Shown in pieces: positions 45,440-51,128 of a DNA stretch of 64,000 nt. Position 1 is the stretch's first letter. Every line of letters begins with the position of its first letter. The stretch is from the NCBI GenBank assembly GCA_963745235.1, contig CAVUXE010000009.1:96001-160000 (forward strand). The letters run 5' to 3'. The translations under genes were made by a program, and so were the position numbers. Source of the stretch: an uncultured Spirochaetota bacterium (GTDB lineage Bacteria > Spirochaetota > Spirochaetia > SZUA-6 > Fen-1364). The notes beneath the pieces were generated by a model, which was given only the letters and a program-made list of their open reading frames with translations, had not been told where the DNA came from and ran no database searches.

Positions 45440-45468
45440 TTGCGTCTTGCGCCAATCCGGTATATAAT
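45440..45468 (+). promoter_or_regulatory. sigma70 promoter of the MarR-RiPP operon
   Basis: TTGCGT (45440-45445), 17 nt, TATAAT (45463-45468). Confidence 0.7.
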
Positions 45469-45484
45469 TGCTACTAGCAATTAT
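45464..45484. promoter_or_regulatory. Operator: perfect inverted repeat ATAATTGCTA-C-TAGCAATTAT
   Basis: 10-1-10 dyad over the -10 and TSS, directly upstream of a MarR gene. Confidence 0.75.
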
Positions 45485-45513
45485 TGATAGATGCAAACAA
45501 GGGGCGTGCATCC

Positions 45514-45957
45514 ATGGCGGAAGCGCAGAAGCGTTTCATCGACTACATCATCGAGCTGAAGACGCGTTGTCACTTCGAGGAAGAGATCGGCGAAGAGTGC
45601 CGCCTTGCGCCGCGCGAGGTGAGCTGCCTGAGCGCCCTCTCCCCCGGAGAAAGCGTCTCCGCGGGGGAGCTTGCCGGGCGCATGGGCCTGTCTCCCTCCC
45701 GCGCCAGCAGGCTCATCATGGCCCTGCGGACAAAGGGGATGGTCCTGGAGACCTTCGATGCCATTGACAGGCGCGCTGTCTCGATCTCCCTCACCCCCGC
45801 GGGGGAGAGGCTCGCGCTCAGGATCGAGCTGAAGAAGGACGAATGCGAAAAGCGTCTCCTTGGCGCCTTCAACCGCGAGCAGTTGCGGACTGTCCGAGAC
45901 GGGCTGGCCACCCTGAGCATCGCTTTTCAAGGAGGAGATCATGGAAGAGTTGGTTGA
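45514..45957 (+). CDS. MarR family regulator with four Cys
   Basis: ELAGRMGLSPSRASR and DRR.V.ISLT..G motifs. Confidence 0.88.
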   Translation: MAEAQKRFIDYIIELKTRCHFEEEIGEECRLAPREVSCLSALSPGESVSAGELAGRMGLSPSRASRLIMALRTKGMVLETFDAIDRRAVSISLTPAGERLALRIELKKDECEKRLLGAFNREQLRTVRDGLATLSIAFQGGDHGRVG

Positions 45958-46600
45958 TGCGGTGCGCGCCCGCTACGACACGTTGTCGCAGCAGGCCTGC
46001 TGCCTGTCCTGCGGCGGGGCGGTGAGCTACGGCAAAGCAGAGTCCGGCGAGATCTGCGTGGACCTGGGGAGCGGACAGGGGCGCGACGTCCTGCGCCTGG
46101 CGGGGGAAGTCGGTGAGCGGGGCCACGCGTATGGAATTGACGCGTCTGACGGAATGCTGAAGAAATCCCGCGCAAGCGCAGAGAGGCTCGGGGTGGCAAA
46201 CGCCACCTTTCTCAAGGCGGACCTGCATCGTATCCCTCTCGAGTCGGACAGCGTGGATCTCGTCATCTCCAACTGCACCATCAACCACGCGGCGGACAAG
46301 CAGGCGGTGTGGAACGAGATATTCCGCATTTTGGCCCCCGGCGGGAGGTTCGTGGTGAGCGACATCTATTCGACGAACGAAGTCCCGGCAAAGTTCGCGA
46401 ACGACCCCGCGGCCATCGCGGAATGCTGGGCGGGGGCCGTGACGCGGGAGGAGTATTTCAGCCAGCTCGAGCGCGCCGGCTTCGACACGGTGGCCGTCCG
46501 CGAGGAAAGCGCGCCGTATGCCAAGGGCGAAATCGAAGTCGTCAGCCTGACGATTTCGGGCACAAAGCCGCGCCGCAGATGCTGCTGTCGCGGCCAATAA
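45941..46600 (+). CDS. ArsM-like SAM-dependent methyltransferase
   Basis: CCLSCG, VDLGSGQG, ISNCTIN, AECWAGA, C-terminal CCC; GGAGGAG RBS. Confidence 0.85.
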   Translation: MEELVDAVRARYDTLSQQACCLSCGGAVSYGKAESGEICVDLGSGQGRDVLRLAGEVGERGHAYGIDASDGMLKKSRASAERLGVANATFLKADLHRIPLESDSVDLVISNCTINHAADKQAVWNEIFRILAPGGRFVVSDIYSTNEVPAKFANDPAAIAECWAGAVTREEYFSQLERAGFDTVAVREESAPYAKGEIEVVSLTISGTKPRRRCCCRGQ

Positions 46601-46619
46601 CACAAGGAGGAGGCGAGAC

Positions 46620-46715
46620 ATGAAATCTCTCATCAGACCGAAGAAAGCGGCCGGGGCTTGCGTTGCCCAGTGCTGCGCCAAGATCTCTACGGTCGTCGCC
46701 GGCTGCCACGACTAA
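46620..46715 (+). CDS. Cys-rich RiPP precursor peptide, 31 aa (MKSLIRPKKAAGACVAQCCAKISTVVAGCHD)
   Basis: Translated by hand; AAGGAGGAGG RBS, TAA stop; directly upstream of a radical SAM/SPASM gene; below the ORF-track cutoff. Confidence 0.85.
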   Translation: MKSLIRPKKAAGACVAQCCAKISTVVAGCHD

Positions 46716-46724
46716 TGCCGGTGC

Positions 46725-46757
46725 GCGGGCCCTCGGGGCGCATGCCCCGGGGCCTGC
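46725..46757 (+). terminator. GC-rich hairpin after the precursor gene (stabiliser or partial terminator)
   Basis: GCGGGCCC-T-CGGGGC / GCAT loop / GCCCCGGGGCCTGC; about 14 bp stem, weak U tail. Confidence 0.55.
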
Positions 46758-46776
46758 CTTGAAAGGCTTCAAAGAC

Positions 46777-48090
46777 ATGGTGCTGTCGCGTCACAACATC
46801 ACGGGACGACTGAAGGACTCCGAGGGTTCCTTCATCATCAACCCTCTTTCCCGCAGCGCGGACCTTCTGAGCCCCGAGAGGGCCGGGGAGCTGGCCTCCG
46901 GCACTTTCTCCAATCCACGGGAGCTGGCCGAAAAGGGGTACCTGGTCGATCCTGACGAGGAAACCCGCAATTTCCGCGCTGCATACCTGGATTTCCTCGA
47001 CTCGCGGGATCATGGAGAGACCCAGCTTTTTTTCGTTCCCTGGTACTCCTGCAACTTCGCCTGCCCCTACTGCTACCAGGAGGGGTATGCCGCCCAATCA
47101 GGCGTGCTAGGGGATGAGGTGAGCGAGGCGTTTTTCAATTACGTCGGGAAGGAGTTCGCCGGCGGTCCGTCTATGTGACTCTCTTCGGAGGGGAGCCCCT
47201 CCTGCCGGGCGACCGGGCGCGGAAAAGCATCCAAAGGTTTCTCGACCTGGCAGCGGCGCAAAGCCTTTCGGTTGCCGTGGTAACCAACGGGTACATGCTT
47301 CGCGACTACCTGGAGACATTGCAGCGTGCGGCCATTCGTGAGGTCCAGGTGACCCTGGACGGGGTGGGCGGCCTGCATGACCGCAGGAGACCGCTGCGGG
47401 GCGGCTTGCCCACTTTCCAGCCGATTGTCGATGGGGTCGACGAGGCGCTGAAGCGCGGCATTCCCATCAACCTGCGGGTCGTGCTGGACCGGGAGAACAT
47501 CCACGGCCTGCCGGAGCTGGCGCGATTCGCCCGGGACCGGGGCTGGACCGGGAATCCTCTCTTCAAGACGCAGCTGGGGCGAAATTACGAGCTTCACACC
47601 TGCCAGGCGGATCCCGGCAGGCTCTACACCCGCGTGGAGCTCTACCAGGAGCTCTCCACCCTCGCTTCCCAGCATCCCGAAGTCATTCGAGCTCCACCGG
47701 CCGGCATTCTCCCTGGCAAAGTTCCTCTGGGAGAACGGGGAGCTGCCCGCGCCCTTGTTCGACTCCTGTCCCGGCTGCAAGACGGAATGGGCGTTCGACT
47801 ACGCCGGCCGCATCTATTCCTGCACTGCGACCGTCGGCAAGGTCGGAGACGAGCTGGGGACATTCTATCCGCAGGTGAGCAGGCGGGATGACCTGATCGA
47901 GGAGTGGCAGCAGCGGGACGTGACATCGATCCCGGAGTGCCGCACCTGCAATCTCCAACTGGCCTGCGGAGGCGGGTGCGCGGCAGTTGCCCGCAACCGG
48001 GAGGGCAGGCTGAACGCCCCTGACTGCCGTCCGGTGAAAGAGCTGCTGGAAATGGGGTTGTCACTCTATTTTGGAAAGGAATACGAATGA
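46777..48090 (+). CDS. Radical SAM/SPASM peptide maturase (frameshifts near 47165 and 47690)
   Basis: CNFACPYC, FGGEP, TNG, QVTLDG; SPASM CPGC..G.IYSC and CRTCNLQLACGGGC-x15-C; RRE-like N-terminus. Confidence 0.9.
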
Positions 48091-49373
48091 TGGCTGCAAT
48101 GGTTCACGAGATCGCGGCGGACCAGTATGAAAAGGAAGTTCTGGCAGGAGGAAAGGTCGTCCTTGACTTCTACTCCACCGAGTGTCCGCCCTGCGAGGCG
48201 CTGGCGTCCAAGTACGAGGGGCTCGCCCGGATCTACGGGGAGGACGTGCGGTTCCTGAAGATTTTCCGACAGGGGAACAAGGCGCTCGCGGAAACACTTG
48301 GCGTGGCAAGCTCGCCCACTCTTTTGTTCTACGACGGGGGGAAGCGGCTCGAAGGTCAGCTGAGCGGCGGAATTCGACGCTCGCAGATCGCCGAGCGGCT
48401 GGACCAGATGCTCCCTCCCAGCCGCGTTCAGGAGCTGCGGGGAAAGGTCACCCCGGTCGTCACCGACTGTGACGCCCTCATCCTGGGCGGCGGTCCTGCC
48501 GGCCTGACCGCCGGGATCTACCTCGCACAGGCGCACCTGAAGACCGTGATCGTGGACACCGCGCTTCCCGGCGGATTCGTTGCAACCACACACCAGGTTT
48601 CCAACTACCCGGGGTTCCCTGACCCTTTGAACGGCTACATGCTTTCCCATTTCATGAGCGAACAGGCAAAGAAAGCGGGGGTTGTTTTCCGCGCAGCCGC
48701 GGATGTGGCCGCCCTGGACCTCGAAAGAAAAACAGTCCTCCTCGACGGCTATGAGACGGTCCGGGCACGCACGGTCATACTCGCCACGGGCTCCACCCCG
48801 CGGCCGCTGGGAATCCCCGGGGAAAAGGAGCACAGGGGCCGCGGCATTTCCTACTGCGCCACGTGTGACGCGAAGTTCTACGAGGGAAAAGACGTGGTGG
48901 TCATAGGCGGAGGCAATTCCGCCGTGGAGGAATCCCTTTTCATTGCGAGGTTCGCCCGCAAGCTCACCGTTGTCCACCAGTTTGCCCAGCTCCAGGCCAA
49001 CAAGGAGGCCCAGAAGAAGGCCTTCGACAACCCGCGGGTCGATTTTCTCTTCGAGCACGAGCCCCGGGCGTTCATCCGTCACGCGGACATGGACATGGAG
49101 GTGATCGTGGAGAACCTGCGGGATCATTCAATCAGAGGGCTTCGCTCGAACGGCGTGTTCGTCTTCGTGGGTTTCATACCGAATGTCCTCCCCTTCGACG
49201 GCGAGTGCAATCGGGATGCAGCGGGGTACATCGTCACTGACGAGAAGATGCGTGCCAGCCTTCCCGGCGTCTACGCCGTGGGGGACGTGCGGTCGAAACC
49301 TTACCGCCAGATTACCACGGCGACAGCCGATGGCACGATTGCCGCCATCGCCATTTCCCAGGAGTTGGCATAG
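48087..49373 (+). CDS. Thioredoxin-thioredoxin reductase fusion
   Basis: N-terminal Trx fold (DFYSTECPPC), then GGGPAG, CATCD, GGGNSA and GD. Confidence 0.92.
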   Translation: MMAAMVHEIAADQYEKEVLAGGKVVLDFYSTECPPCEALASKYEGLARIYGEDVRFLKIFRQGNKALAETLGVASSPTLLFYDGGKRLEGQLSGGIRRSQIAERLDQMLPPSRVQELRGKVTPVVTDCDALILGGGPAGLTAGIYLAQAHLKTVIVDTALPGGFVATTHQVSNYPGFPDPLNGYMLSHFMSEQAKKAGVVFRAAADVAALDLERKTVLLDGYETVRARTVILATGSTPRPLGIPGEKEHRGRGISYCATCDAKFYEGKDVVVIGGGNSAVEESLFIARFARKLTVVHQFAQLQANKEAQKKAFDNPRVDFLFEHEPRAFIRHADMDMEVIVENLRDHSIRGLRSNGVFVFVGFIPNVLPFDGECNRDAAGYIVTDEKMRASLPGVYAVGDVRSKPYRQITTATADGTIAAIAISQELA

Positions 49374-49433
49374 CGGACCAGGATCGATTCGCGGCCTTGT
49401 TCTGGGCTGCACCAGGTAGATCCGCCCGGTAGT

Positions 49434-49481
49434 GGGAATCCGGATTCCCGTTTTTTCTCATCACGGGAACCCGCGTTCCCG
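49434..49481. promoter_or_regulatory. Two related dyads GGGAA-N6-TTCCC, candidate enhancer (UAS) sites; the first may also act as a terminator
   Basis: GGGAATCCGGATTCCC at 49434-49449 and CGGGAACCCGCGTTCCCG at 49464-49481; centres 31 bp apart. Confidence 0.55.
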
Positions 49482-49570
49482 CTTCCCGGCCGGCCGCTCG
49501 CGGCCTCGTGAAAAAGAGCGCGCCGGCCAGTCTTTTTCGCGCGTTTTTGCCGCTCTTGCGGAGCCTGTCC

Positions 49571-49586
49571 TGGCACAGATCGTGCA
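49571..49586 (+). promoter_or_regulatory. sigma54 (-24/-12) promoter
   Basis: TGGCACAGATCGTGCA = TGGCAC core with exact GG-N10-GC spacing. Confidence 0.75.
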
Positions 49587-49597
49587 TACTGTCGGTA

Positions 49598-51128
49598 ATG
49601 CCCCCGTTGGTCTCAATGAAAAACATTACGAAGCACTTCGGTTCCGTGAAGGTCCTGGACCAGGTTGATTTCGTCATTTACCCGGGCGAGGTGCACATCC
49701 TGGCGGGGGAAAACGGGGCCGGCAAGAGCACCCTCATGAAGATCCTTGCGGGCGCATACGCCGACTACCAGGGCCGAATCGAGATGGAGGGACGGGAGAT
49801 CCGCCCCTCGAGCCCTCTGGACGCCAACCGGCATGGGATTGCGGCCATCCACCAGGAGCTTTCCCTCATCCCGTCCATGACCGTTGCAGACAATCTCTTT
49901 CTCGGCCACCCCATCACCCGAAGGGGCTTTGTTCAGGCGGGAGCCCACCGGCGCAGCGCGGAGGACGTCCTGGGCAGAGCGGGCGTCCGTGCCTCGGTCA
50001 CCTCGCTCGTGGAGGACCTGCCTATCTCGGTGCAGCAGCTCATCGAGATCACCAAGGCCATACGATTGAACGCGCGGGTCCTCATCATGGATGAGCCGTC
50101 AAGCGCCCTGAACGCGCACGATGTGGAAACCCTCTTCGCCCTCGTGCGGCAGCTGAAGGTCGAGAACCGCGGGATAATCTATATCACTCACCGACTTGAG
50201 GAGATCCACCGGCTTGCAGACCGGATCACTGTGCTTCGTGATGGACGGCTCGTGGGCAGCTCTGCGGCTTCCGATCTTCCCGAGAAGAAGCTCATCCGAA
50301 TGGATGGTTGGCCGGGAGATCGAGGAGCAGTTCCCCCGCCACACGCCGCAGATCTCCACCGAGGCGCTGCGGGTGGAAAATCTCTGCGTTCGCGCCGCCA
50401 GCCGCGCTCTGCGTCCCCTGGTGGACCGGGTCTCCCTTGGTGCTTCGCGCGGTGAGATCCTTGGAATCGGCGGGCTGCAGGGCTCCGGTGCCAGCGAGCT
50501 CTTTCTCGGTCTTTTCGGCGCGTTGCCAAAGAGGACGGAAGGGCGGGTGGCCATTGATGGAAAGCCGGTCCGAATCCGATCTCCCCGCGACGCCATTGGG
50601 AACGGCGTCGCCCTGCTGACCAACGACCGCAAGGCCACCGGGCTCATCGCCTCAATGTCGGTGACGGCAAACATGTGCGCGGCCAACATGAGGACCCTGG
50701 CGCCCCGCGGGTGGCGGCATCCGCGCCTGGAAGTCCGGGCGGCCACCGAGATGGGCAGGGCGCTGCAGCTTCGCGCCGCCTCGCTGGACATGGAGGTCGG
50801 GGAGCTCTCCGGCGGCAACCAGCAGAAGGTGGCCATCGGCAAGTGGCTCACGACGAACCCGCGGATCATGCTCCTTGACGAGCCGACCCGCGGAATAGAC
50901 GTGGGCGCCAAGCACGAGATCTACCAGCTCATGAACGACTGGACTGCTCACGGGATCTGCATTCTCCTGGTGACCTCGGAGATGCCCGAGCTTCTCGCCA
51001 TGAGTGACAGGATCGTTGTCATGCACCGGGGGGCCATTACAGCGGAGCTCTCCCGCCAGGAGGCCACCGCTGAGAAAGTCCTGGAGGCGGCCATGGGAAA
51101 GACGAACGGAGGCGGAAATGGTCGGTGA
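49598..51128 (+). CDS. Sugar (CUT2) ABC ATP-binding protein (frameshift near 50300)
   Basis: GENGAGKS, DEPS, LSGGNQQK, DEPTRGIDVGAK. Confidence 0.93.

Follow-up and report, generated by a model that had tools for sequence, protein, structure and literature searches.

We analysed a stretch of 64,000 nucleotides (hereafter the window) from an uncultured Spirochaetota bacterium, positions 96,001 to 160,000 of contig CAVUXE010000009.1 in GenBank assembly GCA_963745235.1. At 45440-49373 on its forward strand, the open reading frames (ORFs) of the window include five close-packed genes behind a -10/-35 pair that overlaps a palindrome. The first gene, marR (45514..45957), encodes a MarR-like winged-helix repressor of 147 aa, counted from its ATG. 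It overlaps by 17 nt the gene of an ArsM-like S-adenosylmethionine (SAM) methyltransferase (45941..46600; 219 aa with the Cys-rich tail RRRCCCRGQ), which is followed after a 19-nt gap by a precursor-like Cys peptide of 31 codons (MKSLIRPKKAAGACVAQCCAKISTVVAGCHD; 46620..46715) with a GGAGG ribosome-binding site. A structured spacer of 61 nt, in which folding energy places a GC-rich hairpin (46725..46757, forward strand), leads to the gene of a radical SAM (rSAM)/SPASM peptide maturase of about 437 aa (46777..48090), which is broken in the assembly. The last gene (48087..49373; 428 aa) shares an ATGA overlap with the rSAM gene and encodes a fusion of thioredoxin and thioredoxin reductase (Trx::TrxR), with CPPC in the thioredoxin and CATC in the reductase domain. 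A terminator-like hairpin on the same strand (49431..49460), with a 9-pair stem (49431-49452) and the T-run TTTTTCTC, stands behind the operon.

The locus is a real, intact, repressor-controlled five-gene operon, and four of its genes, those for the ArsM-like methyltransferase, the Cys peptide, the rSAM/SPASM enzyme and the Trx::TrxR, make up a core cassette that is widespread and unnamed. The best explanation, to which we assign a probability of about 0.7, is an intact MarR-repressed operon of this cassette, in which rSAM peptide maturation is tied to thiol or metalloid chemistry.

The promoter-like pair (45440..45468, forward strand) consists of a -35 element TTGCGT (45440-45445), a 17-nt spacer and a perfect -10 element TATAAT (45463-45468). 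An automatic promoter rule called no site upstream of marR, because the -35 element matches TTGACA at only 3/6 positions. The pair was read by hand and was kept, since the -10 element is perfect and five relatives have TTGAC[AC] at the equivalent -35 place. Overlapping the -10 element is a perfect 10-1-10 palindrome, ATAATTGCTA-c-TAGCAATTAT (45464..45484). Its core, TTGCTANTAGCAA, occurs once in the window, compared to 0.02 occurrences expected by chance, and once in the whole 5.85-Mb genome. A TTGCTA-N-TAGCAA core is present upstream of marR in 5/5 relatives examined, with 0-1 mismatch and sometimes in tandem, and two of these five relatives belong to other families. Judged from these sequences, the palindrome is the dedicated, autoregulated operator of a putative MarR repressor. 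The gene packing and the palindrome over the -10 element bear out the original prediction, made from the letters of the window, of a single operon with its own repressor site. The ATG start of marR was set by the orthologues, which have the same MAEA/MAGA start, and a TTG at 45484 falls inside the operator. The regulator appears MarR-like by resemblance: it scored 25.3 bits with MarR_2 (PF12802; gathering threshold 27) and 22.9 bits with MarR (PF01047; 24.6), just under the Pfam thresholds, and the orthologue in locus L015 reached E = 5e-10 to MarR-type NCBIfam models, under their cut-offs.

Species-representative genomes were scanned with the orthologous rSAM protein, which gave at least 600 pattern matches, at least 518 of them encoding a relative. 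The locus counts given here refer to the best 80 of these at least 518 rSAM relatives, all from metagenome-assembled genomes (MAGs) and 51-100 % identical; neighbour clusters were annotated only if present in at least 4 of the 80 loci, which left ten clusters. The 80 loci are labelled Spirochaetota, Bacteroidota (many Prolixibacteraceae and Bacteroidales), Ignavibacteriales, Latescibacterota, Myxococcota, Fibrobacterota, Acidobacteria, delta-proteobacteria, Marinamargulisbacteria and others. By tblastn, the methyltransferase was found in 75 of them and the Trx::TrxR also in 75, three of the five misses being at contig ends in each case. Within the genus of the window the cassette is patchy: 4 of 21 genomes gave strong matches, as did 7 of the 41 relatives searched.

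The peptide is encoded by a real, conserved gene. It is 31 aa long, with a leader beginning MKSLIRPKK and the core AQCCAKISTVVAGCHD directly before the stop codon. In 7/7 close loci this small ORF separates the methyltransferase gene from the rSAM gene. Of the 80 loci, 78 have an ORF ending [QL]CC[AT]K-x6-8-GCH[DN]-stop immediately 5' of the rSAM gene, the exceptions being L025 and L093. Because the 78 loci were found with that pattern, its letters are not independent evidence of conservation, and the weight of the peptide evidence is the presence of the ORF in 78/80 loci. The earlier reading of this short Cys ORF as a gene is thereby upheld, and the objection that the maturases might have no conserved adjacent peptide falls away. 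There are 68 distinct peptide sequences in the 78 loci, all with one common core. When 28 of the 78 were aligned, A16, Q17, C18, C19, A20, K21, G28, C29, H30 and D31 did not vary, and at least 90 % of the rows had a Ser; outside that alignment the core varies by L for Q (2 loci), T for A (1), N for D (1) and A for the Ser (1). The leader starts with MKSL[IV] and continues as a lysine-rich stretch of variable length.

Some variation was also seen around the peptide gene. The extra Cys of the window peptide, in GACVA, is not conserved, and in some loci the leader has additional Cys residues (L041 and L082 have another CC pair, L067 has CNC). In L025 and L093 the rSAM gene has no upstream peptide ORF; L025 is also without the methyltransferase, and in L093 the methyltransferase gene abuts the rSAM gene. 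In public records, exact look-up gave the peptides as 'hypothetical protein' and the enzyme as 'radical SAM protein'. The peptide falls outside all curated NCBIfam and Pfam families, and its best scores in the ESM Atlas (at most 0.86, to unnamed clusters, and 0.79-0.81 to two bacteriocin-precursor families) were below the meaningful level. The spacer hairpin at 46725-46757 has a folding energy of -36.3 kcal/mol and z = -2.67. The related loci have 71 spacers that are 20 nt or longer; z, calculated against mononucleotide shuffles, was below -2 for 55 of these, and 64 contain a stem run of 7 or more.

In the window, the rSAM gene is spread over three reading frames, which change by -1 near 47162 and by +1 at 47688. 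The outer two pieces are in the same frame, and the piece between them, translated in its own frame, retains a match to Radical_SAM. Public contigs from four metagenome runs of four studies were compared over 46600-48100, where all are 95 % alike or more, and most of them 99 % or more; the closest-matching run may be the source sample, while the other three studies are independent. At 47688 one letter fewer was present in 4/4 runs from the 4 studies. Behind 47162 a C was inserted in both runs with cover at this position (X1 and X7), the other two runs being without cover there. Both corrections together turn the rSAM gene into one open frame. As the contigs of other runs carry the corrected bases, the two frameshifts are assembly errors and not decay. 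The earlier suggestion that they were errors to be corrected from reads has been confirmed in this way, and the possibility it had named as fatal, that the indels are real, drops out. In the relatives G007, G028 and G039 the rSAM orthologue occupies one uninterrupted frame of about 450 aa, and G040 also has a long open frame; folds and models were made on an intact orthologue.

Other genes with broken frames were also observed. The gene of a two-domain ABC sugar-transporter ATPase (49508-51128) is split into overlapping frames, 49508-50455 and 50196-51128, probably by another assembly indel. In two genomes of the same genus, the orthologous cassettes have frameshifts at places other than those in the window, namely in the rSAM gene of G015 (L014) and in the methyltransferase, rSAM and Trx::TrxR genes of G008 (L017), which suggests error-prone assemblies in this MAG group.

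For the rSAM enzyme, the best supported assignment is a SPASM maturase that bears an RRE (recognition element of ribosomally synthesized and post-translationally modified peptides, RiPPs), with the 31-aa peptide as its predicted substrate. The CxxxCxxC motif (C92, C96 and C99; window positions 47050-47073) is invariant in 31/31 orthologue rows, as are eight further cysteines, C276, C331, C349, C388, C391, C397, C401 and C417, and C334 is not conserved (22/31). This SPASM set, a seven-Cys motif with an upstream Cys, is enough for two fully ligated auxiliary 4Fe-4S clusters. The C-terminal piece of the window enzyme scored 44.2 bits with TIGR04085 (SPASM; cut-off 27), and the window pieces and three intact orthologues match peptide-maturase families only. 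The AlphaFold model of the orthologue had a predicted local distance difference test (pLDDT) score of 89.2 and a predicted template modelling (pTM) score of 0.88. Its N-terminus is modelled as beta3-alpha3, with strands at 8-11, 18-22 and 27-31 followed by helices, which is the RRE layout. The top fold match was the thioether synthase CteB (5wgg; E = 3.5e-17, TM 0.70) over the full length, including the RRE-like domain, and TigE, anSME, SuiB, SkfB and ChlB came next; CteB was also the top sequence match among solved structures (1.6e-9).

The binding of the peptide was modelled with the orthologue enzyme, three 4Fe-4S clusters, SAM and the peptide. The enzyme-peptide complex scored 0.82, compared to 0.02 for the best of 3 controls; 58 of 80 solved complexes attained this mark, as did 2 of 110 mismatched pairs. 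The runs share at least 50 % of their contacts, with a partner pLDDT of at least 49. In the model, residues 1-8 of the leader contact residues 19-31 of the enzyme, including the invariant N22, L24, A28 and D29, and core residues 20-23, 25-26 and 31 contact barrel and SPASM residues. The fold, the CteB match and the modelled leader binding agree with the original prediction of an rSAM/SPASM enzyme with an RRE-like N-terminus. Its sactipeptide/ranthipeptide label is reduced to a resemblance, as no such curated family reaches its cut-off.

The closest known counterpart is the CteB/ScfB-SCIFF system, which has the same RRE-like N-terminus, the CxxxCxxC motif, a SPASM domain with two auxiliary clusters and an adjacent short Cys-rich substrate. 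The cassette peptide differs in having three Cys and another, C-terminal GCHD core, and the cassette is found in Spirochaetota, Bacteroidota, Ignavibacteriota and other phyla, not in Clostridia. To our knowledge, SCIFF loci do not contain an ArsM-like methyltransferase and a Trx::TrxR, unlike the cassette. The top-scoring curated families, PapB, CefB (Cys-every-fifth) and TIGR04463 ('very short C-rich'), likewise combine an rSAM/SPASM enzyme with a short Cys peptide, but their peptide motifs and partner genes are unlike those of the cassette. PapB makes a Cys-to-Asp link, and such a link would fit the C-H-D end of the peptide.

The methyltransferase appears to be a distinct, shortened ArsM-type paralogue with a strongly constrained thiophilic site. 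With the ArsM model NF008823 (cut-off 263) the window enzyme scored 187.2 bits and the orthologues 194-196, and the solved structures nearest to the enzyme are those of arsenite methyltransferases (5evj, 8.9e-25; 8xt7; 4fr0). C24, C112 and C162 align to the Cys of the ArsM motifs GCG, SNCVIN and ECxxGA. In an alignment of 71 rows, consisting of the window copy and 70 orthologues after four second-copy paralogues were dropped, all three are present in 71/71 rows, and the DLGSG SAM motif is found throughout. An adjacent CC pair is present in 70/71 and 69/71 rows, and the Cys-rich C-terminal tail is common but not universal (53/71). The four dropped copies are a second, related methyltransferase with a Cys-less tail (L026:8003-8659, L032:5045-5668, L048:4504-5133 and L081:6897-7508).

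The cassette enzyme shares with ArsM/AS3MT, its closest solved relatives, the DLGSG motif and three invariant arsenic-binding Cys (GCG, SNC, ECxxGA). It differs in being shorter (219 aa), in lacking the C-terminal domain as well as ~60 positions at the start of the profile, in having a CC pair fused directly onto the SCGG motif, and in reading SNCTINH where ArsM has SNCVINL. A strongly constrained thiophilic site speaks against a simple switch to peptide methylation. The predicted substrate could be a metalloid, a thiol-bound substrate or the peptide, and metalloid or thiol chemistry appears as likely as peptide methylation. The earlier proposal that the methyltransferase modifies the peptide was not sustained, since the invariant Cys triad points at least equally to metalloid/thiol chemistry. 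As a whole, the original scheme is upheld in part. A pairing of an rSAM enzyme with an ArsM-type enzyme is known from the arsinothricin pathway, in which the rSAM enzyme ArsL makes the first C-As bond and ArsM then methylates. The cassette differs in that its rSAM enzyme belongs to the SPASM/RRE peptide maturases and is accompanied by a conserved peptide, and in that the model of the arsinothricin ArsM (NF040538; cut-off 500) gave 117-122 bits. No curated NCBIfam or Pfam maturase or ArsM family reached its cut-off for the rSAM enzyme or the methyltransferase.

The Trx::TrxR matched the Pfam models Thioredoxin and Pyr_redox_2 and scored 305 bits with TIGR01292 (cut-off 343). Across 64 rows, its CPPC, CATC and HQF motifs each show a conservation of at least 95 %. 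Thioredoxin reductases usually have HRR as their NADPH arginine motif, and HQF at that place is atypical; with HQF in place of the NADPH arginines, the electron donor may differ. It is plausible that the Trx::TrxR keeps the peptide Cys reduced, and it is equally suited to recycling the ArsM-type enzyme's own disulfide. The ArsM/AS3MT enzyme class depends on the thioredoxin system.

Taken together, the preferred explanation would work as follows. MarR, bound to the palindrome over the -10 element, would hold the operon off until a signal arrives. The 31-aa peptide would then be made in excess over the enzymes, helped by the hairpin 3' of its gene. Its short leader (MKSLI and the lysine-rich stretch) would dock as a strand on the RRE-like N-terminal domain, as modelled, and the near-invariant core AQCCAK-x-S-x4-GCHD would enter the barrel. 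There the enzyme, equipped with one SAM cluster and with two auxiliary clusters that are both fully ligated, would install one or more cross-links, most likely thioethers from the conserved Cys, as relatedness to CteB and PapB suggests. The ArsM-type methyltransferase and the Trx::TrxR would subsequently carry out peptide-tied thiol or metalloid chemistry, and here the explanation does not distinguish between methylation of a remaining thiol and methylation of a metalloid bound to thiols, in which case the reductase would recycle disulfides. The product would stay inside the cell, and probably does so. An intracellular role fits because neither a protease nor an exporter is among the annotated neighbour clusters; the same absence had been noted for the operon and holds for the clusters.

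Several observations weigh against this explanation. marR was found by tblastn in only 12 of the 80 loci, which counts against MarR as part of the cassette. The correction at 47162 comes from two short contigs with a depth of 4-4.8. Thioether formation is suggested by relatedness, and the enzyme lies far under every curated family cut-off: the three intact orthologues scored 115-154 bits with CefB (NF038107; cut-off 600), 105-149 with TIGR04463 (525), 88-124 with PapB (NF047865; 340) and 62-100 with SCIFF (TIGR03974; 425). The pass of the modelled complex may partly reflect likeness to RRE-leader complexes already solved (CteB, SuiB, ChlB), the calibration included neither riding ligands nor custom alignments, and the fold of the peptide itself is uncertain (pLDDT 49-55). 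No arsenic-resistance genes (ArsR, Acr3, ArsB, ArsC) are among the neighbour clusters annotated. Moreover, the same genome encodes, on another contig, a canonical ArsM (C49:11683-12501) that is above the NF008823 cut-off with 328.6 bits. The canonical ArsM (L099:6603-7505) adjoins a nucleoside hydrolase and a CdhD-like gene and lies outside any ars operon. Finally, if all three Cys were converted to thioethers, no metalloid ligands would be left, and the two halves of the explanation may therefore conflict.

Alternatively, the cassette could be a metalloid (As/Sb) methylation module of anaerobes, in which the three-Cys peptide, acting as a thiol ligand or chaperone, presents As(III) to the ArsM-type enzyme, the Trx::TrxR recycles the enzyme disulfide and the rSAM enzyme only shapes the peptide, for example by a thiol-sparing cross-link. 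The arsenic-binding Cys, invariant in 71/71 rows, and the arsenite methyltransferases as nearest solved structures argue for such a module, as do the vicinal CC pair and third conserved Cys of the peptide, the Cys-rich tail on 53/71 methyltransferases and a co-encoded thioredoxin system, which suits ArsM/AS3MT chemistry. The thiol- or metal-flavoured accessory genes found elsewhere (DUF1847, DUF6132, YgaP-like transmembrane and SQR-like proteins) point the same way. However, ArsR, Acr3, ArsB and ArsC are missing from the annotated clusters, the regulators are MarR, Crp or a zinc-ribbon protein rather than ArsR, a canonical ArsM is available elsewhere in the same genome, the methyltransferase is under the ArsM cut-off (187 vs 263), and the nearest relatives of the rSAM enzyme consume Cys thiols instead of sparing them. 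We regard a metalloid module as unlikely, but as the most probable of the rivals.

A peptide-derived redox cofactor or low-molecular-weight thiol surrogate, following a logic like that of mycofactocin or PQQ, appears improbable. Here the near-invariant core would be the working part, tailored or cycled by the methyltransferase and the reductase. Such a role would explain a core that is constant across phyla with a variable leader (68 distinct peptides), which is unusual for antibiotic RiPPs, and it is consistent with the dedicated reductase in 75/80 loci, with the conserved HQF in place of the usual NADPH arginine motif and with the lack of a recurrent exporter or protease among the annotated clusters. 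On the other hand, no partner dehydrogenases or peptidase recur with the cassette, its patchiness even within the genus (4/21 genomes) fits an accessory trait better than a core cofactor, and the case for a cofactor is drawn from the genes themselves.

It is more doubtful still that the product is an ordinary secreted antimicrobial or signal of the ranthipeptide/sactipeptide type, with its exporter and protease encoded elsewhere. The closest families of the rSAM enzyme are indeed Cys-peptide maturases (CefB, TIGR04463, PapB, CteB), and a hairpin 3' of the precursor gene is frequent in RiPP operons. Nevertheless, the annotated neighbours that recur in the 80 loci include neither a transporter nor a peptidase, the core is nearly unvarying across phyla and the leader is very short.

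A bolder proposal, which we consider a long shot, is that the cassette makes an organo-metalloid peptide. The three Cys would chelate As(III) or a similar thiophilic element, the RRE-guided rSAM/SPASM enzyme would generate a carbon radical on the core that captures it in a C-As bond, the ArsM-type enzyme would methylate the bound metalloid and the Trx::TrxR would provide the reducing steps. ArsL and ArsS form C-As bonds on small molecules. If the proposal were true, a carbon-metalloid bond would be seen for the first time in a ribosomal peptide.

Least credible of all, to the point of being nearly dismissed, is a decaying operon with the rSAM gene as a pseudogene carrying two real frameshifts: the three frames in the window and the cassette frameshifts of G008 and G015 would speak for it, but the contigs of four other public runs correct the shifts, the two shifts exactly compensate each other, the shifted middle piece retains its Radical_SAM match, the adjacent ABC ATPase gene is split too, which points to assembly quality, and the orthologues are intact in G007, G028 and G039, with a long open frame in G040.

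The gene set of the preferred explanation is apparently an undescribed variant of rSAM peptide maturation. The cassette was not found in the Creative Commons-licensed literature of PubMed Central and in bioRxiv, while subscription surveys of rSAM RiPP clusters could mention it, and in the same literature the peptide motif 'QCCAK' gave a single match, a snake-venom paper. A 2026 selenoproteome review just lists ArsM-type selenoproteins.

In hundreds of anaerobic bacteria, spread over many phyla, one tiny peptide core is preserved with hardly any change and is accompanied by the same three enzymes. Such conservation of a core is unusual for ribosomal peptide natural products and suggests an intracellular function over an antibiotic one; a cofactor, a thiol or metalloid carrier and a stress response are candidate functions. 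An rSAM enzyme that modifies a peptide, combined with an enzyme in which all arsenic-binding residues of ArsM are retained, would link ribosomal-peptide chemistry to metalloid or thiol methylation. The habitats recorded for the metagenome runs carrying this stretch are anoxic soils, peat and sediments, and the cassette would have a bearing on who methylates arsenic in such places.

Outside Spirochaetota, in the Bacteroidota and Ignavibacteriota loci, the cassette is without MarR and other genes recur instead: a divergent zinc-ribbon (IS1595-type) protein of 144 aa (22 loci), DUF6132 (20), DUF302 (20) and DUF1847 (13), the last often between the rSAM and Trx::TrxR genes. Further neighbours in other phyla are a Crp-type regulator (8 loci), a membrane Fer4 protein (6), an SQR-like flavoprotein (5) and a YgaP-like transmembrane protein (4). 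When the accessory genes of the other phyla were compared with NCBIfam and Pfam, only DUF names, the SQR-like protein and thioredoxin-like matches were obtained, and no function was assigned. One unannotated cluster, present in 3 loci, appeared ABC-type ATPase-like by eye.

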